Below are positions 38,548 through 48,384 of a stretch of 48,384 nucleotides of DNA, one piece after another. The stretch covers positions 1 through 48,384 of the forward strand of contig JAFTLK010000358.1 in the NCBI GenBank assembly GCA_017455975.1, read 5' to 3'. This DNA is from Clostridia bacterium. GTDB taxonomy: Bacteria > Bacillota > Clostridia > Oscillospirales > CAG-272. The notes under the pieces are model-generated. The model ran no database searches. It was not told the DNA's origin and saw only the letters and a program-made list of their open reading frames with translations. Both the position numbers and the translations under genes were made by a program. Positions within the stretch are counted from its first letter, which is position 1, and each line of letters starts with the position of its first letter.

Positions 38548-41409
38548 ATGTCTACCTTATTTCAAAAATACGCAGCATTAAAAAAGCGAATTCCCGGCAA
38601 CCGTGAACGAAACGGCTTTGAGTATTCCTTCGGCATGCCGCGTGAGGAGCAGCAGAATATCACGCCGACCCCGCGGTATATCGTCCGCATTCTGTCCGAG
38701 GTCGAATTTGCCATCCGACTATCAAAGGAACTTGACGGCAAATATGACGCGCTGATCGATGAGGCGCTTGCTTATCTGACCGATGCTGTGGACAACGACG
38801 GCATGCTGACAAAGTCAGTATGCGCAAAAGCCGAGGAAATACTCCTGCCGCTGTCGTCCGATGCAAAAGAATATAAGCTGATCCTCGCGGGTCACGCGCA
38901 CATTGACATGAACTGGCAATGGGGGTGGCATGAAACGGTTGCCGCGACGATTGCCACCTTCCGCACGATGCTGAACATTATGGAGGAATATCCCGATTTC
39001 TGCTTCTCGCAGTCGCAGACCTCGGTATATAAGATCATCGACGATTACGCGCCCGAAATGCACGACGAGATCAAAGTACGCATCGACGAGGGTCGCTGGG
39101 AGATCACCGCGTCCGCATGGGTCGAAACCGATAAAAACATGCCGTCTGGCGAATCGCTGATGCGGCATATCAAGTATACCAAAGAATATCTGCGCGACAA
39201 GTGGGGCATTTCTCCCGATAAGCTGGAAATTGACTTCTCGCCCGATACCTTCGGTCATTCCGCGAATCTTCCGGAAATCGATGCGCAGGGCGGTGTGAAG
39301 TATTACTACCATTGCCGCGGTCTTGCGGAAAATACGGCTCTTTACCGCTGGAGAGGGCAGTCAGGACGGGAGCTGCTGATGTACCGCGAGCAGTATTGGT
39401 ACAACAGCGGCATCACACCCGAGCCTGCCATGGGTCTGTTCGATGTTGTCCGCCGCCAAGCGGGACTGAAGACGGGACTGGTCGTTTACGGTGTCGGTGA
39501 CCACGGCGGCGGACCGACCAGACGTGACGTCGAGCGCGGTATGGAAATGATGGATTGGCCCATCTTCCCGACGGTCAAGTTCGGCACGTTCCGTGAATTC
39601 TTCAAGGAAGCGGAATCGGTGCGCGACGCACTTCCCGTTGTCGAAAAAGAGCTGAATGTCATTTTCCCCGGCTGCTATACGACACAGACCCGTATCAAGC
39701 GCGGCAATCGCCGTGCAGAGCTGGCACTCGGTGAAGCGGAAGCCGTATCCGCTTGTGCAAGTGTTTCCATCGGCGCAAAGGTACGCCGTACCGCCATTGA
39801 AGCGGCATGGCAGAAGGTACTTCTGTCGCACTTCCATGACATTCTGACAGGCTCCTGCGTACAGGATGCACGTGAACACGCAATGGGCGAATATCAGAAT
39901 GTTCTTGCCACCGCCAATTCTGAGATCGGTCTGACACTCGGCAAGCTTTCCGCGCAGATTGATACCTCGATGATTCCGATGCAAAAAGATATCAACGCAC
40001 AGTCCGAGGGTGCCGGTGTCGGTTATCAGATCAGCACCTATGCAGGACGCGGCCTGGTCGAGCGCGGTATGGGTCTGACGCGCATCTGGCATGTCTTCAA
40101 CAATACCTTTGCTGACAAGGCTGAGCCTGTCGAGATCACTGTCTGGGACTGGACGGGCGATATGCGTTGGATCCGTGTTACCGATGCCGACGGTCAGCCG
40201 CTGGATTTCCAGCTTGTGGATGGCGGTCTTCAGCACTATTGGGATCACAAATACTTCCGTATTCTCGTCCGGGTGCAGGCAAAGGCGCTTTCTTATACCA
40301 CAGTCGTTCTGTCGCAGGGCGAGATGGGCGAATATCCTGTTTACCTCTATCCCGCAAACGAACGTCATACGCCGCAGAGCAATTATGTTCTGGAAAATGA
40401 GCACATCCGCTGTGAATTTGACTATGCGACGGGTGAGATGCTCTCCATGACCGACAAGGCTGACGGGCGCGAATATCTTGCACCCGGCACACGCGCGGCG
40501 CTGTGTTACATCGATACAAACCGCCACAATTCCAACGCATGGGAGATCGGTACGCATCTGAAGACAACGCCGATCACCGACGTGACCAACATCCGCGCGA
40601 CGATGGGCGGCAGTCTGCGGTCTGCATTTGCCTTTGATGCAAAGATCGCAAACTCCCGCGTGACGGTGGAATATTCGCTTGACCGCGGTGCTCACGCTGT
40701 CCGCGCGGCAATCAGGGTCGATTGGTCTGAGGTCGGGGGCGAAACCGTTCCCGTGCTGGCGTATGTACTGCCTGCGTCCTATCATGCAGACGGATTCCTC
40801 TATGACATTCCCGCAGGCACGATCGTCCGTGCGGCGGCAGAGGAGGACATGCCCGGTCAGAGCATGATCTGCGCCGTTTCGGGCGGGGAGCGCAACCTCG
40901 GCATCATCACCGATTCCAAGTACGGCTTCCGCGGTGTCGAGCGCGACGGTCACGCGGTGCTGTACTCCACGCTGATCAACTCGGCAACCAGCCCCGATCC
41001 GTATCCCGAACGCGGCATTCACGAGATCGTTCTGCATGTCGGCTTGCTTTCGGCAAAGCCTGCGGATGCCGTCAGGACCGCTCATTCTCACAACCGCCCG
41101 ATGACGCCCGTCAGCGCATCGTATCACAAGGGAACCTTGCCGCCCGCGGGTACGTTCTTCCGGATTGATGCGCCGGATGCGATGGTATCGAGCGTGACAA
41201 ACAACGATGATGGCAGCATTACCGTACGGATGTATTCGCTGTCCGATCAGGAGAGCTGCGCGGTTCTTTACACGCAGAGGTCACCTGTATCGGCGGAAGC
41301 CGTTGATCTGTTTGGTGCTGCAGTCCCCGGTGACTGTGCGGTAAACGATGATTGTGTCACCGTTACCCTGCCGCCGCGCGGCATTGTTTCGGTGAAGATC
41401 GGGTTCTGA
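38548..41409 (+). CDS. GH38 alpha-mannosidase-family glycoside hydrolase
   Basis: GHAHIDMNWQW, WVETDKNMPSGESL, PDTFGH (nucleophile), YGVGDHGGGPT, FHDILTG and DSKYG; GGAGG RBS before ATG 38548. Confidence 0.95.
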   Translation: MSTLFQKYAALKKRIPGNRERNGFEYSFGMPREEQQNITPTPRYIVRILSEVEFAIRLSKELDGKYDALIDEALAYLTDAVDNDGMLTKSVCAKAEEILLPLSSDAKEYKLILAGHAHIDMNWQWGWHETVAATIATFRTMLNIMEEYPDFCFSQSQTSVYKIIDDYAPEMHDEIKVRIDEGRWEITASAWVETDKNMPSGESLMRHIKYTKEYLRDKWGISPDKLEIDFSPDTFGHSANLPEIDAQGGVKYYYHCRGLAENTALYRWRGQSGRELLMYREQYWYNSGITPEPAMGLFDVVRRQAGLKTGLVVYGVGDHGGGPTRRDVERGMEMMDWPIFPTVKFGTFREFFKEAESVRDALPVVEKELNVIFPGCYTTQTRIKRGNRRAELALGEAEAVSACASVSIGAKVRRTAIEAAWQKVLLSHFHDILTGSCVQDAREHAMGEYQNVLATANSEIGLTLGKLSAQIDTSMIPMQKDINAQSEGAGVGYQISTYAGRGLVERGMGLTRIWHVFNNTFADKAEPVEITVWDWTGDMRWIRVTDADGQPLDFQLVDGGLQHYWDHKYFRILVRVQAKALSYTTVVLSQGEMGEYPVYLYPANERHTPQSNYVLENEHIRCEFDYATGEMLSMTDKADGREYLAPGTRAALCYIDTNRHNSNAWEIGTHLKTTPITDVTNIRATMGGSLRSAFAFDAKIANSRVTVEYSLDRGAHAVRAAIRVDWSEVGGETVPVLAYVLPASYHADGFLYDIPAGTIVRAAAEEDMPGQSMICAVSGGERNLGIITDSKYGFRGVERDGHAVLYSTLINSATSPDPYPERGIHEIVLHVGLLSAKPADAVRTAHSHNRPMTPVSASYHKGTLPPAGTFFRIDAPDAMVSSVTNNDDGSITVRMYSLSDQESCAVLYTQRSPVSAEAVDLFGAAVPGDCAVNDDCVTVTLPPRGIVSVKIGF

Positions 41410-41422
41410 TAACTGTATCTGA

Positions 41423-41812
41423 TTGGTATATCAGGGGCTTGGGGCCAGATTGTGTCAAAAGTATTATCATATCGTGGATGAATATGCTACCGGCTGGGTA
41501 ATCCCGACAACAAGCAGCAAGACAGAGATGACAGATGTTGTTCTGGAATATATGTTGTATGCATCCGCACCTCTGGTCGAGGCTGTATATGAGACAACAC
41601 TCAAAGGAAAACGTCTGGACAGCCCGAATGATGCGGAAATGCTCGATCTTGTCCGAAAGACGACCTGGTATGAGATCACATTTGTGCTTGATACAGGTAT
41701 CCGTACGATGATGGAATCTGCTGTGAAAAACGGCAATATTGCATCGGGATATGAGAAACAATCAAAGAAGATCAGTAAAAAACTGGAGGATTACTGCATG
41801 AGTGAGCAGTAA
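41423..41812 (+). pseudogene. C-terminal fragment of a third solute-binding lipoprotein
   Basis: YYHIV...VIPTT...LEYMLY...YETTLKGKRLDSPNDAEMLDLV aligns by eye with the C-terminus of the SBP at 28433 (YETALKTKYARDNESEKMLSII). No signal peptide or RBS. Confidence 0.7.
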
Positions 41813-42284
41813 TCCCGCCGTACAGGCTGACATAACAGAACTGCTTCATGCAAAACAGGTATGGAGCGGTTTCACTTTTCGTTTGGCTGACAGTGGCTGA
41901 TTCCCGTGAAAAATCCGTTTTGTGATGTGCTGTGTCTGACAAACCACATGAGAAAAATGTTGGATTGTGATATCATGAGTGATGCAGAATTGTTCTCGAA
42001 GACATATACTGATTGAACGCTTCCTACTGAAAATCAATGATGACTATTTCGGAACTTATTATCCTCGTTATTGTTATACCGATTTTTTTACCGATTTTTT
42101 TGCACAGCATTACGAAAAGATACTGGTATTTCAGGATCTTTTTCTACCTCTTGTACTTTTTCGGCATAACTTTTTCGGTATAATAATAGCAAGCGGGGTC
42201 CTGTGCTATCACAGAACGAAAATGGCTCGGTTTTGGCTTATTCAAGCCAATTTCCGAGCCATTTTTGCTTGTTGGGGAGAACCC

Positions 42285-42956
42285 CAGAGTGTGTCAAAAC
42301 TCAATCTGGAGCCTCCCCATACTTTTGGACCGACACGCCCCAAGCCCCGGAAATAAAAAAACGAATGATTTTCATGCCGTGAGGCATTCAATCATTCGTT
42401 CAACTCCTAATATATTGATCGCCCTTTTCATATTAAATGCCGTGAAGGCGAGCGAAATCTCACCAGTTACTTTCTCTTTTCCACATAAGAGAAGATAACT
42501 GATGCCAAGAGCTCTCTTTATAGTGCCGAAGGTATGTTCAATAATACTTTTACGTTGCCTGGTGATCGTTCGGTTGGCTCTTACTTTGATTTGTTTGATA
42601 TATAAATCAGCATCATTGAAGTCTTTACTGTACTCGGAATAGTCCACTTGCCGTTCCGCCTCCTTATATCTGGAAGCAGTACACTTGCATTTACAGGCAG
42701 CACAAGCTTTGAAGTTGTAGTATTTAACAATACGTTTATTCTTGTTAAAAGTTTTTGGGTAAAGCGGTTGTCCCATAGGACAAATAAATATATTTCGTTC
42801 GGGAATGTATACACATCGACCCGTGGAATAGCTGATTACCTCCTCTGCATCTTCGGGTTTACAGGGGATACAAATGTCGTAATTTGCGCCGCAAACATGT
42901 GGATCAAATACATCTGCAATAAGACCGGCAACGTCACTTGCACTGTCATATTGTGT
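42285..42956 (-). mobile_element. Truncated IS1182-family element (transposase C-terminal part plus probable right end)
   Basis: Open frame 42956-42372: QYDSASDV...FICPMGQPL...RQRKSIIEHTFGTIKRALG...GEISLAFTAFNMKRAINILG. End-like TTTTGACACACTCTG at about 42299-42285. It is a different subgroup from the intact copy. Confidence 0.8.
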
Positions 42957-42959
42957 TTA

Positions 42960-43147
42960 TCGTTATTTACGAAGGACGGAGTTGTAAAAATAAAGCGAAA
43001 TTCGTCCAACCCTTTCAATTGCTCTATCAATTCATTGAACGCATACATAGAGAAGCACGACGCAGCAATCGACATTTTACTGCCTTTCTTTATACTGGAT
43101 ATAAGATTATCACGCAACAATTCAGTATTATTGTCAATAATTTTCAT
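42960..43147 (-). pseudogene. N-terminal fragment of an SNF2-like helicase of the type found with restriction-modification loci
   Basis: MKIIDNNTELLRDNL...KGSKMSIAASCFSMYAFNEL...FRFIFTTPSF with a GGAGG RBS, fused directly to the IS1182 remnant. The family was recognised from memory. Confidence 0.6.
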
Positions 43148-43193
43148 ATGCTCCTCCATATTAGTATTTATTTTCGTTAAAGCAAATACCAAC

Positions 43194-43433
43194 AAAGGTA
43201 TTTCCATTGACAATTTTACTTAGGATACTGTCAATCTGATTTTCTCTCATGTCAATGCTGTCAAGTGTAAACAGTTTAACAGCAAAAGTGCTTACGATAT
43301 GTTTACGTTTTACTATTCTGAAGCTCTTGCCTCAGCCTTGGGTATTTCCTTTGTTCCTGCCACCGAGGTTGTTCAATCGCCGAAATTACTGGCTGATTCC
43401 TTCTTGAATAAATGCAGTCTTAGTTGCATTTAG
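43194..43433 (+). pseudogene. C-terminal remnant of an IS30-like transposase with an internal stop
   Basis: KGISIDNFT*DTVNLIFSHVNAVKCKQFNSKSAYDMFTFYYSEALASALGISFVPATEVVQSPKLL resembles clostridial IS30 C-termini (PKGxSFD...HINS..R..LNGKSPY). Confidence 0.6.
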
Positions 43434-43692
43434 TCTGAGAAATCTACCTCTCAGGCTTTTTCGTCTTGCGCTTTTTGCGTTGCTTTTGTGCCTTTTGAGG
43501 CGTTTCTGGCCGTTTTCTCATACTTACTGCACTTGGTTCCTCTCGGTAAATGCTATGTCTTTGCTTCTGTTGCATTTACTTTGAGAATTTACGGAAGATT
43601 GGTAAAGAATTGTGAAGTTTACGGTTGTCTGTGAGAATGAGAAGTTTGTGCAGACGGTGATTGCACAAATTCCTTTGACTTTCGTTCCCTCC

Positions 43693-44660: not shown

Positions 44661-46790
44661 ATGATAAATATCGACACCCCCGTAACTGCCCGTGTACAGC
44701 ATTTGCGCGAGCATTATCTCAACCACTCGCCCATGTCCACAAACCGCGATCTCGTGGCGTGGAAGTGCCACCGGTCGCTTTACTATTATGTGGAGGGCTG
44801 GATGCACGAATCCCACGCCGCCACGGTGAGACTCCGCCACGCCGGTGCGGAGGGGTACATGCTCCGCCGCATCGCGCCGGTCATCGAGCCGGGCGAGCTG
44901 ATCGTCGGCCAGCCGGATTTCACGCCGTTTTCCGAGGAGGAGCAGCAGAAATACGACCAGTACCGCAGCCTCGAATGGAACGTGATCCCGCCCAAGCGCG
45001 GCCGCGCGGATCATCTTGGCCCGGATTTCACGCTGTTATTGGAAAAGGGCATCATCGGCATGCTGGCGCTGCTAAATGAGAAGGCGGATGCGCTCGATCT
45101 TTCGGATGGAGAAAATGTGCAGAAATGGGAGTATTACAACTGCTGTAGAATTGAGCTGGAGGGTCTGCTTGATCTGGCGGAGCGGTACGCTGCTCATGCG
45201 GACGCGCTGGCGGAGGAGGCTGAGGGCGATACCAAACGGGAGCTGCGCAAGCTGGCTGCGGTACTGCATCAGGTGCCCGCGCATCCGGCGCGCACTTTCC
45301 GTGAGGCGCTGCAGAGCGTACAGCTCTTCAAATACAGCCTGTTCGGGCTGTATTCCTTCGGACATATCGACCGCTGGCTGCTGCCCTATTACCGCCGCGA
45401 CATCGAGGCGGGCATCCTCACGCCGGAGACGGCGCAGGAGCTTGTGGACTGCTTCATGTTGATGAGCGTGCCCAACATGAGCGCGTGGGCTGCAGAAGGT
45501 CTGATGCTCGGCGGCCGAACAGCGGACGGAACGCCGGTTGAAAATGAGTTGACATGGCATTTCCTTGCCGCCATCGCGCATACGCACATCCCCGACCCGA
45601 ACGTGGGCTTCTGCGTGACGCGGGACACCTCGCCGGAGATTCTGCATTATGCGGCGGAGCTGATTACAGCACACCATGCACAGCCGCAGATCTGGAACAG
45701 CGATGCGGTGACGGCATCCATGCTGCAAAACGGCTTCGAGGCGGACGCGGCGAACAATTTCACCCTCTCCACCTGCGTGGAGGTGACGCCCGTGGGCATG
45801 TCTGGCATCTCCATCACCAGCCCGTACATCAATCTTCTGCAGATTTTCCTCGATTCCCTGAAAGCCTGCCCTTCCGATGCGGATTTCGAGACGATTTTTG
45901 ATCATTTCCACAAGGAATTTGGCGAACGTGCAAAAAAAGCGATTCTGATTGAGAATCTCTTCCAGCTGGAACGCGGGCGGAATTACCACGATCCCGCGCG
46001 GGTTTCGGTGCTCATTCACGACTGCATCGAGCGCGGCCGCTCCCACGATGACAGCGGCGCGCGGTACAATCATCTCGAACCGAACATCCTCGGTATGTCC
46101 AATGTCATCGAAAGCCTGAATGTGCTGCATGAGCTGATCTACCGGCGCGGCAGGCTGACGCTGGATGAATTCCGGCAGGCGCTGGCGGACAATTACGAGG
46201 GGCACGAGGCACTGCTTTCTGAAATTCGCCAGCACGTGGTACACTTCGGCAACGATACACCGGAAACCAACGCCATGGCCAAGCGTGTGGCGGACATGGT
46301 GCTTGACACATTCAAACCCATGAAAACGGTGCGCGGCGCGCACATTGTGCCGGGCGCATTCTCCTACCGGGAACATGAGATTCAGGGGCAGAAAACGCCC
46401 GCATCGCCGGATGGGCGTGTAGCAGGGCAGCCGCTGAACGATGCCTCCTGCCCGGTGCAGGGCTACGACGTGAGCGGACCGACCGCATCGCTGCTGTCCA
46501 CTGCATCGTGGGAACCGTCGCGCTTCCTTGGCGGCACCTCGGTGAATGTGAAGCTGCCGCGGAACATTTCGCCGGAACACGTGGTGGGCATTATCCGGGG
46601 ATACCTCGAAACCAAGGGGGCGCAGCTCCAATTCAACGTGTACAATGTGGAGGAGCTGCACGACGCAAAGGTACATCCGGAGCGCCACCGCGATCTGCTG
46701 GTGCGCATCGGCGGCTACAGCGATTTCTTCGTGAAGCTGCCGGAGAGCCTGCAGAATGAAGTAATCTCGCGAACACAGAATGAAAATTAA
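44661..46790 (+). CDS. Glycyl radical enzyme (PFL-like family), substrate unknown
   Basis: PGELIVG, PARTFREALQ, FGHIDR, Cys loop TCVE, FGND, ASPDGR...PLND, GPTA and the glycyl loop LLVRIGGYS. Confidence 0.93.
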   Translation: MINIDTPVTARVQHLREHYLNHSPMSTNRDLVAWKCHRSLYYYVEGWMHESHAATVRLRHAGAEGYMLRRIAPVIEPGELIVGQPDFTPFSEEEQQKYDQYRSLEWNVIPPKRGRADHLGPDFTLLLEKGIIGMLALLNEKADALDLSDGENVQKWEYYNCCRIELEGLLDLAERYAAHADALAEEAEGDTKRELRKLAAVLHQVPAHPARTFREALQSVQLFKYSLFGLYSFGHIDRWLLPYYRRDIEAGILTPETAQELVDCFMLMSVPNMSAWAAEGLMLGGRTADGTPVENELTWHFLAAIAHTHIPDPNVGFCVTRDTSPEILHYAAELITAHHAQPQIWNSDAVTASMLQNGFEADAANNFTLSTCVEVTPVGMSGISITSPYINLLQIFLDSLKACPSDADFETIFDHFHKEFGERAKKAILIENLFQLERGRNYHDPARVSVLIHDCIERGRSHDDSGARYNHLEPNILGMSNVIESLNVLHELIYRRGRLTLDEFRQALADNYEGHEALLSEIRQHVVHFGNDTPETNAMAKRVADMVLDTFKPMKTVRGAHIVPGAFSYREHEIQGQKTPASPDGRVAGQPLNDASCPVQGYDVSGPTASLLSTASWEPSRFLGGTSVNVKLPRNISPEHVVGIIRGYLETKGAQLQFNVYNVEELHDAKVHPERHRDLLVRIGGYSDFFVKLPESLQNEVISRTQNEN

Positions 46791-46895
46791 AGGAGTATAG
46801 CGTGAAAGTAATGTTTACCCCGTCCCCCAAAAGGCATAACTAAAAAGCCCTGCAATAAAGAAATTTATTGCAAGGCGAAACACAGAAAGGAAATC

Positions 46896-48140
46896 CTAAG
46901 AAACGGTCAATCCTTGCTTTTCAAGAAATTTAGTAGCTTGTTTAACGGCTTTGGATAATTGCCGCTCTTTAAGGGATTCGGTCATATCCACCTTAAACAA
47001 GTCTGTAGGATTCCAGACCTCACCCGTAGTCATCATTTGGAAAATAGCAGTGAGAATCATTCGTGCAATGGCAATAATGGCTCGTTTCTTTCCTCTGCGT
47101 TTTGAAATCTGCTCATACTTTAAGCGGTAGTAAGAATTGTCAGACGCTTTCACGGCTGCATGGGCAACTTGCACCAATGCAGGTTTAAGATATACTCCTG
47201 CACGTGTTATGCGAACAGACTTTTTCTTGCCGGCAGATTCATTGTTGCCGGGCGTTAGTCCCGCCCAACAGCACAAACGTTTTGAAGAACCAAATTGAGA
47301 CATATCATTACCGATCTCGGAAATGATGGTAATTGCAGAATTGCGGTCAACACCGGGAATGGTACGGAGCAAAGAGATTGTATTTTCAAACTCCGCAACC
47401 ATTGAATCGATCGCAGAATCCACCTGTGCAATCGCATCTGTGATGTAATCAAGATGTGAACGAACAATTCTCATACGAAGCTTTTGCTCCTCTGTAATCG
47501 AATAACCTTCAATGGATTCAAGCACAGAATCGGACTTCTTTTTCAAAGAGCGTTGCAAAAGAGAGACACAGTATTCCGGATTGAAGGAATCTTCGGATAT
47601 CAGGTAGTCTGTAATGGCAGTTGCAGATTTCCCAAACATGTCCGAGACAACAGAATCAAGAGCAACGTTGCAGACGGTGAATGCGTTTTGAAAACGGTTT
47701 TTCTCACTGCTTTTCATAGAAACCAGCTTGTAGCGGTATCGAGTAAATTCACGTAGAATACGAATATTCTTTGGCGGAATAAAGCTGCTGGGAACCAAAC
47801 CCAAACGGAATAGATCGCCTATCCATTTGGAATCTTTCGTGTCGTCTTTGTTACCCTTTACGGCTTTTACCCACTTGGGGTTGGCAATGGTCACACGGAT
47901 TCCTCGTTCTTCAAGAATGTTGAATACGGGAACCCAATACTTGCCCGTGGACTCCATACAAACATCAACGCAGTTGTTTTCGTGAAGCCAATCGGCAAAA
48001 CGGTGTAGATCAGAATTGTAAGTAGAAAAGCGTTTCTTTTGGTAATGAGGTTGTACGCCGTTCGTGGTGGAAATGATGGTTCCAACTAAAAAGGTCTTGT
48101 GAACGTCTACACCGCAACAAACCGGGTAAACAACTTTCAA
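46896..48140 (-). CDS. IS110-family DEDD transposase/recombinase
   Basis: CGVDVHK (D), CMESTG (E), KDDTKDS (DD), TIPGV and WAGLTPGNNESAG (catalytic Ser). TTG start with a GGAGGG RBS. Confidence 0.96.
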   Translation of the reverse strand: MKVVYPVCCGVDVHKTFLVGTIISTTNGVQPHYQKKRFSTYNSDLHRFADWLHENNCVDVCMESTGKYWVPVFNILEERGIRVTIANPKWVKAVKGNKDDTKDSKWIGDLFRLGLVPSSFIPPKNIRILREFTRYRYKLVSMKSSEKNRFQNAFTVCNVALDSVVSDMFGKSATAITDYLISEDSFNPEYCVSLLQRSLKKKSDSVLESIEGYSITEEQKLRMRIVRSHLDYITDAIAQVDSAIDSMVAEFENTISLLRTIPGVDRNSAITIISEIGNDMSQFGSSKRLCCWAGLTPGNNESAGKKKSVRITRAGVYLKPALVQVAHAAVKASDNSYYRLKYEQISKRRGKKRAIIAIARMILTAIFQMMTTGEVWNPTDLFKVDMTESLKERQLSKAVKQATKFLEKQGLTVS

Positions 48141-48169
48141 AAATATCCCTCCTCGAATTAAGATACGAG

Positions 48170-48365
48170 GAAAAGATAGTGACTGAATCATCACACAATC
48201 TAACAGGTGTTAAAACAATTCTTAGCGTACGTGCTCAAAAGCAACACTTATTTGTGCTTGACAAGATGATTCTAACACTGATTAATATACTGTTTTCAGC
48301 AAGAAGTACCTCTACGACTCCTCCTACCGTGCGTTGTAGTTTGTCTTTCCCCCATAAACAGTATA
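48170..48365 (-). ncRNA. Putative IS110 bridge RNA
   Basis: Non-coding leader with two stem-closed domains (TATACTGTTT 48286-95 / AAACAGTATA 48356-65; GAATCATC 48185-92 / GATGATTC 48265-72). It carries 6-nt matches to the element end and to the target flank. Confidence 0.6.
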
Positions 48366-48384
48366 CAACAAATTTGTTACAAAA

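Follow-up and report, generated by a model that had tools for sequence, protein, structure and literature searches.

RNA guidance of IS110-family transposition has been described for IS621 and for the seekRNA elements of the IS1111 group. IS621, as described in the text of Durrant et al. (2024; PMC11208160) and by Hiraizumi et al. (2024; PMC11208158), possesses a DEDD + Tnp transposase, a guide RNA whose gene lies in a long left end, ahead of the transposase gene, left guides with top-strand polarity that include the core, and a dinucleotide core at both junctions. All of these features recur in the insertion sequence studied here, whose transposase is a distant relative of that of IS621, but its core is TA instead of CT. 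The IS1111 group, according to Siddiquee et al. (2024; PMC11187229), has subterminal inverted repeats of 7–17 bp. A covarying inverted repeat connects both ends of the element here too, but it comprises 6–7 bp and its left copy is located some 40 nt from the left terminus. The non-coding region is located upstream, not downstream, of the transposase gene. IS900, an IS110-family element from Mycobacterium avium subsp. paratuberculosis, is reported to have the target motif CATGNNNNNNTCTCCTT, i.e., CATGN6TCTCCTT (PMC8141618). The target considered here is a site of the same type as that of IS900, as given in this source: both consist of a start codon, a spacer and an anti-Shine-Dalgarno (anti-SD) stretch and are used in one orientation. 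The two elements occur in different phyla, and a long antisense reading frame like hed of IS900 is absent from the open reading frame list of our element. With a probability of about 0.85, the locus represents an intact IS110-family element of ~1647 nt with a TA core, a bridge RNA produced from the left end, and targeting of the SD/ATG region. This corresponds to the known mechanism of RNA-guided IS110 elements, confirmed in a new gut-bacterial lineage and with variant details.

The window, i.e., the whole stretch of 48,384 nt that was analysed, contains this IS110-family insertion sequence in the region 46790–48384, where it is truncated by the contig end. The transposase gene is located on the minus strand at 46896–48140 (TTG start at 48140–48138, 414 codons, stop at 46898–46896). 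The encoded protein displays PF01548 (DEDD_Tnp_IS110, E 2.5e-23) followed by PF02371 (Transposase_20, E 7.3e-20) in Pfam, reaches 242 bits with NCBIfam NF033542 ('IS110 family RNA-guided transposase', cut-off 140), and matches the IS621 (E 8.9e-14) and ISCro4 transposases in PDB. The family assignment made in an earlier, sequence-only reading of this DNA thus agrees with all three resources. No ISfinder name was assignable, and the annotated plasmid matches were all called just 'IS110 family transposase'. Relatives of this transposase, with identities of 73–99%, were collected from 80 loci; 61 of their left ends were aligned for fold and covariation tests. Tepidibacillus infernus MBL-TLP (nine copies), Acutalibacter sp. 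1XD8-33 and Lawsonibacter sp. LCP25S3_F5 are candidate cultured strains that carry the element.

The right end includes 96 non-coding nucleotides (46800–46895, minus strand) and terminates with CTTTCA (46808–46803) followed by CGC. The core dinucleotide TA occupies 46798–46799 (minus strand), so that the right junction reads ...TTTCACGCTA|TACTCCTTTAA on the element strand. The presence of TA at right junctions was built into the search pattern, which required it. The dinucleotide at 69 left junctions has the form nA (TA in 49, AA in 15 and CA in 5 of them). In the tandem copy identified in locus L048, ...TTTCACACTA is joined directly to ATCAACCATTC with nothing in between. At the other side, the interior of the left end (48366–48384, minus strand) runs off the contig. 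The conserved element sequence continues for 62 nt past the window edge on contig C9 (L003:142–203), passing the 5' stem-loop and reaching the left end, ATCTCCATTC, at position 203. This contig is the putative left neighbour of the window copy, as suggested by a 141-nt overlap and by a flank that fits the guide described below.

The element termini are ATCTCC... and ...CACGC, with no terminal inverted repeats, as expected of the IS110 family. The CTTTCA motif near the right end and TGAAAG inside the left end form the inverted repeat mentioned above; it occurs in two compensatory variant classes and links both ends by covariation. Genome G041 carries nine copies of 1636 nt each, whose sequences part exactly at the element ends. 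No true empty site was recovered from relatives of the window genome, from the genera of G041 and G042, or from metagenome contigs. The relatives of the window genome yielded weak matches to the glycyl-radical domain in 4 of 41 genomes, including G000. The genus of G041 comprises this genome alone, the two flanks of L066 are located 580 kb apart in G071 from the genus of G042, and the exact 29-mer of the window right flank had no match in metagenome contigs. The element boundaries rest, therefore, on the tandem junction and the multi-copy comparison.

The host DNA next to the right junction (46785–46797, minus strand) reads TACTCCTTTAATT on the element strand. Its reverse complement is an SD sequence, AAAGGAGTA, directly after the TAA stop codon (46788–46790) of a glycyl-radical enzyme gene. 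The survey of other insertion sites revealed the same arrangement. At 64 of 69 left junctions, positions -7 to -5 are occupied by CAT, the reverse complement of a host start codon, with 4 nt separating it from the element, and the frames starting from these CATs are open for at least 100 codons in 45 of 64 cases, compared to 211 of 817 other ATGs. An anti-SD motif was found within the first 12 nt of 54 of 75 right flanks versus 7 of 75 in a control window (positions 31–42). In G041, the element occupies 5 of the 21 CATAATA sites that have CCTC within the next 8 nt, versus 3 of 722 other CATAATA sites (Fisher p 5.8e-7), and the element-free ortholog of the L066 host gene has CAT-N7-TCTCCTT at this place. 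With CAT on its left and the anti-SD stretch on its right, the element sits between the SD sequence and the ATG of a host gene, antisense to that gene. The earlier view that such elements land between genes of operons is therefore refined: insertion is not simply intergenic, but occurs between SD and ATG and in one orientation. The first six element bases (ATCTCC; GGAGAT on the host strand) are hypervariable and SD-like, and would supply the displaced gene with a substitute SD sequence.

The left end, i.e., 306 nt upstream of the transposase gene, is predicted to harbour, in the orientation of the transposase gene, the gene for a bridge (seek) RNA. The RNAalifold consensus suggests an RNA of ~190 nt (48165–48353, minus strand), with putative ends. 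Its closing stem is formed by GGGGGAAAGA (48353–48344) and UCUUUUCCUC (48176–48167), or columns 104–116 with 287–298 of the alignment, and one of the pairs, 113–290, shows four pair types. Compensatory changes were detected at 19 of 39 predicted pairs, and many G.U pairs are compatible solely with the transposase-sense strand. The single-sequence fold has an energy of -52.8 kcal/mol (z -2.73). Whole-alignment pairwise column covariation was discarded, with clade-level differences swamping the signal. An Rfam search with L001–L003 on both strands gave no matches at E up to 1; release 15 may or may not hold a bridge RNA family.

The sequence-only reading had proposed a fold of two domains. All sequences it quoted were recovered at the positions given there: ACTCCT at 46796–46791, ACGCTA at 46803–46798 and again at 48228–48223, AGGAGGAGT at 48325–48317, and the GAATCATC/GATGATTC stem. 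The latter closes the donor-binding arm (48185–48272, minus strand) as GAAUCAUC (48272–48265) with GAUGAUUC (48192–48185) and stood the comparison with 61 relatives, with 98.4% of cells paired and six of eight pairs changed on both sides. The inner hairpin of this arm (columns 214–220/227–232) is compensatory as well. The 10-bp outer stem of the other domain failed: 59.7% of cells are paired, five of its ten pairs depart by unpaired cells alone, and its 3' strand falls on the 5' portion of the left target guide, an invariant stretch. The inner CTACAAC/GTCGTAG stem gives an ambiguous picture: 82.7% of cells are paired, compensatory changes are lacking, and 52 of 61 rows show an A.C mismatch. 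The GCAC/GUGY stem of the target arm is uninformative, since it is invariant or varies on one side, and the paired fractions of the 5' stem-loop in the left end (52–80%) are weak counts because this part of alignment A1 is poorly aligned.

The region also includes an anti-SD/SD hairpin (48148–48170, minus strand), in which CCUCG (48170–48166) pairs with CGAGG (48155–48151). The SD sequence of the transposase gene, GAGGAGG (48154–48148), begins within the CGAGG strand. The helices of this hairpin, also visible in the alignments, have 92.3% and 74.7% of cells paired, with compensatory changes. The closing stem of the bridge RNA and the transposase SD would both require this CCUC, and such competition would link translation of the transposase to the folding of the RNA.

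A -10-like hexamer, TATACT (48360–48365, minus strand), with TG one base upstream (TGTATACT), is conserved in position in the alignment and may represent an internal promoter of the bridge RNA. A promoter consensus scan of two loci scored CAGACA-17-TAAAAT in L066 and nothing in L008; no outward promoter toward the host gene was found in either of them. Inspection by eye revealed no promoter across the junction of the right and left ends (RE-LE), unlike the situation described for IS621 (PMC11208160, PMC11208158). Contigs from four of four RNA libraries, representing four studies, span the left end, a count compatible with DNA carry-over and one in which strand and ends are not readable. One contig (run X20) ends at 48173, close to the 3' end predicted for the RNA; being a single contig, it is not evidence.

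The best-supported candidate for a target guide is a segment on the start-codon side, other than the SD-like loop, that had been overlooked in the sequence-only reading. This left target guide, UAUAUUA + AUC (48280–48289, minus strand; consensus UAUnnnAAUC), has the polarity of the top strand and corresponds to CATATTA|ATC, the sequence of the left junction on contig C9. Exact identity with the left flank was observed for 47 of 56 loci, a number reached in none of 5000 shuffles (mean 4.6, maximum 13 exact matches), and these exact matches are spread over 20 different trinucleotides. Guide columns 174–176 agree with the left flank at identities of 0.88, 0.96, and 0.96 and display mutual information (MI) of 1.1–1.45 against a background of at most 0.36. 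This covariation shows that UAU-nnn-A, on the 3' side of the target arm, reproduces the left flank together with the core; its pairing partner would accordingly be the bottom strand at this place. The guide closes with AUC, and at 54 of 56 loci these last three nucleotides are the same as the first three of the left end; this extension copies the first element bases and, thus, the LT-core-RD product.

The left donor guide, ACGCUAA (48222–48228, minus strand), consists of the right-end ACGC, the core TA, and the first base of the left end. The genomic ACGC and TA at 46803–46798 represent the left-donor sequence that it reads. The assignment of ACGCUA to this role, with the polarity given earlier, holds in 60 of 60 loci and covers four right-end variants (ACGCTA, ACACTA, ACGTTA, and AAGTTA). 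The polarity rule applied to it, with the left donor guide in top-strand polarity and the right target guide as the reverse complement, agrees with the account of Durrant et al. (PMC11208160). Several candidate segments for a right-donor guide were compared by eye, and none was consistent across lineages: in the closest relatives AGAUUG can pair with TAATCT, and in L069 UAUUG can pair with TAATA, but other lineages do not fit. The MI test for this guide was confounded by clade structure. As in IS621, the donor for recombination would be a circle, RE-TA-LE.

The role of the SD-like loop UAGGAGGAGU (48317–48326, minus strand), which is complementary to the right flank on the element strand and was previously proposed as the right target guide, is less clear-cut. 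It forms six Watson-Crick and two G.T pairs with ACTCCTTT. The 6-nt AGGAGU/ACTCCT match on which the proposal was based is at chance level by itself, as family loops average 5.55 against unrelated family flanks. Weak support for the proposal comes from an alignment-free comparison, in which complementarity to the own flank (5.92 versus 5.55 for shuffled flanks) was reached in 9 of 2000 shuffles; fixed-register covariation of the right flank was found with none of the RNA columns. Its pairing with the right-flank strand that holds the anti-SD would be loose in register.

Alternatively, the start-codon-side guide, together with the core, could select the target alone, the GGAGG loop being structural or regulatory and the right-flank anti-SD motif reflecting the neighbourhood of start codons and purging of intragenic insertions. 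The missing fixed-register covariation, the small excess of complementarity, and the offset between CTCC and the core, which varies from 1 to 6 nt, agree with this explanation. So do the 21 of 75 right flanks that have no anti-SD motif in the first 12 nt; insertions of this kind had been named beforehand as speaking against a guide that reads AGGAG. Selection could also produce the enrichment of sites in G041. We nevertheless consider this explanation unlikely, given the rarity of equally complementary shuffles, the 11 contiguous complementary bases in L021 (GUUGAGGUGAG versus CTCACCTCAAC, the best case), and the non-SD loop GGGACG of L070, which stands opposite CGTCCC. The loop is, moreover, the most variable patch amid an otherwise invariant context, and it is not obvious that an insertion between SD and ATG would be neutral.

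It is far less probable that the variable trinucleotide and CAT belong to the element, which would turn the matching RNA segment into a donor guide. This idea takes support from (C/A)ATAATA preceding the left end in all nine G041 copies, but one of these has AAT in place of CAT. In the L048 tandem copy, ATCAACC follows the right end immediately and no such bases intervene, guide and flank mismatch in 9 of 56 loci, and CAT opens the long host reading frames counted above. The view of the upstream region as a mere 5' leader that governs transposase translation via the anti-SD hairpin, with no guide role, fits the conservation of this hairpin and the lack of Rfam matches but is hardly credible, because it gives no reason for two RNA segments to covary with the left flank and the right end, both outside the RNA gene.

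Under the preferred reading of a bridge RNA-guided element, several details deviate from IS621 as presented in PMC11208160 and PMC11208158. The extension of a guide that matches the recombination product is reminiscent of the IS621 handshake guides, but is attached here to the left target guide, and the donor arm forms a multi-branch loop. A clear right-donor guide was not found. The order within the target arm is also different. According to Durrant et al. (2024; PMC11208160), bottom-strand pairing is a property of the 5' side in the IS621 bridge RNA. Here, the SD-like loop (columns 131–141), which would pair with the top strand, precedes the left target guide (columns 171–180), which would pair with the bottom one, and the IS621-type order does not apply.

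Tentatively, these features may be viewed as a third layout of RNA-guided IS110/IS1111 elements, which combines a mixed architecture with a target arm homing to start sites and an SD-mimicking end. The upstream position of the RNA gene would then be shared with the IS110 group, and the guide order and end-linking repeat with the IS1111 group. One guide would read the start codon and four bases exactly, while the other, itself an SD sequence, would locate, at a sliding distance, the strand that bears the anti-SD. The first six element bases would mimic the right half of the target and occasionally be swapped for it (L070 versus L071). As a joint proposition this possibility is held with reservation; mimicry and swapping would rebuild the SD sequence of the displaced gene and explain the hypervariability of the six bases.

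Some IS110-family elements, including IS900, have long been known to land between the SD sequence and the start codon, and our reading offers an RNA-guide explanation for this preference. Our literature searches yielded no paper that connects a bridge RNA with IS900 or with targeting of SD/ATG sites, although this lineage may already appear in the supplementary target tables published by Durrant et al. and by Siddiquee et al. To those who work with bridge recombinases, the family offers natural reprogramming (the left target guide has 20 trinucleotide variants), a candidate guide that would tolerate a sliding register, and a layout outside the published dichotomy of IS110 and IS1111 elements. 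As regards genome annotation, such elements split operons at a precise and predictable point, and contig breaks occur inside them.

The IS110-family transposase gene (positions 46896–48140, minus strand) encodes a 414-codon protein with both domains characteristic of IS110-family transposases. The protein scores 242 bits against the NCBIfam model 'IS110 family RNA-guided transposase' (cut-off 140), and the IS621 transposase, whose structure is solved, is a distant relative (E 8.9e-14). Scanning a single genome from each species gave 80 loci encoding proteins 73–99% identical to the window protein. Their hosts are mainly uncultured gut Clostridia, together with one Tepidibacillus isolate and several environmental Bacillota. 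Decayed relatives were also present: the transposase match in L069 is cut at residue 359, with unrelated sequence beyond; L024:1078–1503 carries a ~120-nt insertion in the left end; and a deletion in L061:1272–1503 takes out the loop that resembles a Shine-Dalgarno (SD) sequence.

The window, which ends within the element, is the whole of contig C323 in a genome bin of 412 contigs. About 2 kb of it (41400–43600) have a G+C content of 36–44%, the remaining contig 54–63%. The remainder of the element is on contig C9, which shares 141 nt with the end of the window. A second, 91% identical copy is represented by its 3′ end on contig C399. Upstream, conservation extends 62 nt past the window end, up to ATCTCCATTC; downstream, it stops at ...TTTCAC(G/A)CTA. 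The ends and a TA core were fixed by locus L048 (2436–2900), in which two copies lie head-to-tail and ...TTTCACACTA directly adjoins ATCAACCATTC, with a single TA between the right and left ends. This pair is either a tandem dimer or one copy inserted at the end of the other. Nine copies in genome G041, each of exactly 1636 nt, diverge at the same end points. The window copy is ~1647 nt long: its right end stops at 46800 and its core is 46799–46798 (both minus strand), and its left end is at L003:203 on contig C9. The latter is the candidate left flank, being the only one in the bin and fitting the guide described below. A covarying inverted repeat joins the ends, with TGAAAG ~40 nt inside the left end and CTTTCA beside the right terminus; the variants are TGGAAG/CTTCCA in L070/L071 and TGAAAA/TTTTCA in the Tepidibacillus group. 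On contig C399 (L002:222–365), ATTACCATGG, which lacks an anti-SD motif, comes directly after the right end of the 91% identical copy. Some 120 nt further lies a second, solitary right-end-like sequence, ...TTTTTCACGCTA followed by AATCCTC, with its inverted repeat GCGTGAAAA preceding it.

At all loci, the element begins with 6–7 hypervariable nt that resemble typical right flanks and differ even where copies are near-identical in the rest of their sequence. Among 69 junctions, the element starts with ATCTCC (22), ACCTCC (13), ATCACC (12), ATCAACC (11) or, more rarely, ATCAGCC, ATCCACC, ATCGTCC and others.

CAT occupies positions −7 to −5 in 64 of the 69 distinct left junctions; the other five read CAC (three: the tandem junction and L070/L071), AAT and ATA. 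The ATG opposite this CAT opens at least 100 codons in 45/64 left junctions, and in another 3 the frame is still open where the locus ends; among the remaining same-strand ATGs, 211/817 are equally open. CTCC, CCTC or TCCT occurs within 12 nt in 54 of 75 distinct right flanks, compared with 7/75 in a control window at positions 31–42. Thus, the element occupies the gap that separates a host gene's SD from its start codon, and its orientation relative to that gene is always antisense. The right flank of the window copy is the SD AAAGGAGTA, which touches the stop codon of a glycyl-radical enzyme gene (44661–46790; 709 aa, PFL-like and Gly_radical domains); the element parted this SD from the next gene. 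On C9, the flanking DNA begins a GFO/IDH/MocA oxidoreductase gene. In another species, the L066 host gene has an element-free ortholog, which reads CAT-AGTGCCA-TCTCCTTT. Two more right flanks, TTCTCTTTCC and ATTCTCCTTATC, found as loose ends of RNA-library contigs, also fit the site pattern. ATCTCC-type left ends give ATGGAGAT on the host strand (L003:196–210). This supplies an ATG 12 nt ahead of the host start codon and in the same frame (ORF 196–1254), which would add four residues if used. The SD–ATG interval is not new as a target; it is already known for IS900, which, according to older papers, reportedly inserts between the ribosome-binding site and the start codon. PMC8141618 gives the IS900 target motif as CATGNNNNNNTCTCCTT.

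The guides were sought in an alignment of 61 left ends (A1). It omits the window row, which combines two sources; exact duplicates (L016, L029, L078–L082); L024 and L061, for their insertion and deletion; loci whose left end was not set by the pattern or whose flank was too short (L020, L023, L057, L025, L054); and loci missing the upstream part (L004, L009, L033, L072, L075). When A1 was compared with the 16 nt flanking the element on the left (n=56), three positions, namely the first base of the core and the two bases preceding it, matched columns 174–176 with identities of 0.88, 0.96, and 0.96 and mutual information (MI) of 1.10–1.45; all remaining column-position pairs have MI ≤0.36. The guide trinucleotide equals that of the flank in 47/56 loci, with 20 variants (shuffles: mean 4.6, maximum 13; 0/5000 reach 47), and in 54/56 loci the RNA then continues with the same three bases that open the element. 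This segment is the left target guide, of top-strand polarity, and its extension matches the product of left target, core and right donor. In the window, it is UAUAUUAAUC (48289–48280, minus strand). All strings quoted in the sequence-only reading were found in place; it missed this guide because the left junction lies outside the window. Its proposal of ACGCUA as donor guide was borne out: in 60/60 loci, with four variants, the segment includes the terminal six bases of the right end and core combined. The left donor guide of the window, ACGCUAA, is at 48228–48222 (minus strand). In L070/L071 the left target guide itself reads ACGCUA, identical to a donor guide; these near-identical elements (left junctions at L070:430–470 and L071:1195–1235) directly follow a right-end-like palindrome, GCGTGAAAG...CTTTCACGCTA. 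Their first six bases are ATCCTC in L070 versus ACCGTC in L071, the latter identical to its own right flank.

The SD-like loop had also been proposed as a target guide. Its alignment-free score against its own flank (54 rows) is 5.92 versus 5.55 for shuffles (sd 0.136; 9/2000 as high), but the right flank showed no fixed-register covariation with any A1 column (n=54). The best complementarities reach 11 nt (L021), 10.5 (L060), and 9.5 (L015), and L070 has a pair without an SD, GGGACG/CGTCCC. In G041, CATAATA occurs 743 times; 21 of these sites had CCTC within 8 nt before insertion and 5/21 are occupied, compared with 3/722 of the others (p 5.8e-7). Selection could be an alternative source of this excess. 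No convincing right-donor guide was found among the aligned left ends.

RNAalifold on A1 predicted a closing stem (columns 104–116 with 287–298; pair 113–290 occurs as four pair types), a short invariant GCAC/GUGY stem surrounding the target segments, a donor arm (188–195 with 273–280), and an inner hairpin with compensatory changes. Of the stems drawn from the window alone, GAATCATC/GATGATTC in the second domain recurred in the aligned relatives, while the 10-bp outer stem of the first did not. The 194-nt stretch in the window folds at −52.8 kcal/mol (z −2.73), and its abundant G.U pairs are compatible with the transposase-sense strand only. The closing stem shares CCUC with a conserved hairpin pairing the transposase SD, which suggests mutually exclusive folds. 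A conserved −10-like TATACT/TAAAAT marks a possible RNA start region; a complete promoter-like site was scored in L066 and none in L008. If, as in IS621, the RNA began at the left end, it would also contain a 5′ stem-loop. Two direct copies of GCACAAAUA, one in the 5′ strand of the donor arm and one in the loop of this stem-loop (window 48246–48254 and L003 ~169–177, respectively), are invariant in 61/61 aligned relatives. All three RNA modules start with GCAC; in two, a later GUGY could close a stem. At least part of the stretch occurs in 23 public runs (15 studies), 14 of them with half or more of the sampled words. Six of the 23 are RNA libraries; contigs from all four of those that were aligned to the region cover the left end, although contigs cannot show transcription.

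The polarity rule that the sequence-only reading gave for IS621 guides is right, according to Durrant et al. (PMC11208160). The product-matching extension resembles the handshake guides of Hiraizumi et al. (PMC11208158), but is here on the left guide. The top-strand-pairing SD loop precedes the bottom-strand-pairing guide. According to Siddiquee et al. (PMC11187229), IS1111-type seekRNAs share this order but have the non-coding region downstream, whereas the IS110 type has it upstream, as here, with the reverse order. Literature searches linking IS110, Shine-Dalgarno and bridge RNA, or IS900 and bridge RNA, returned nothing relevant. A 2026 preprint lists 86 covariance models and 32,190 bridge RNAs of diverse folds, so this lineage may already be catalogued. 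Of the four expected guides, covariation establishes two; support for a third is weak, and the fourth was not found. The finding is real and its initial interpretation largely right: the element belongs to the RNA-guided IS110/IS1111 kind, and its layout matches neither described type.
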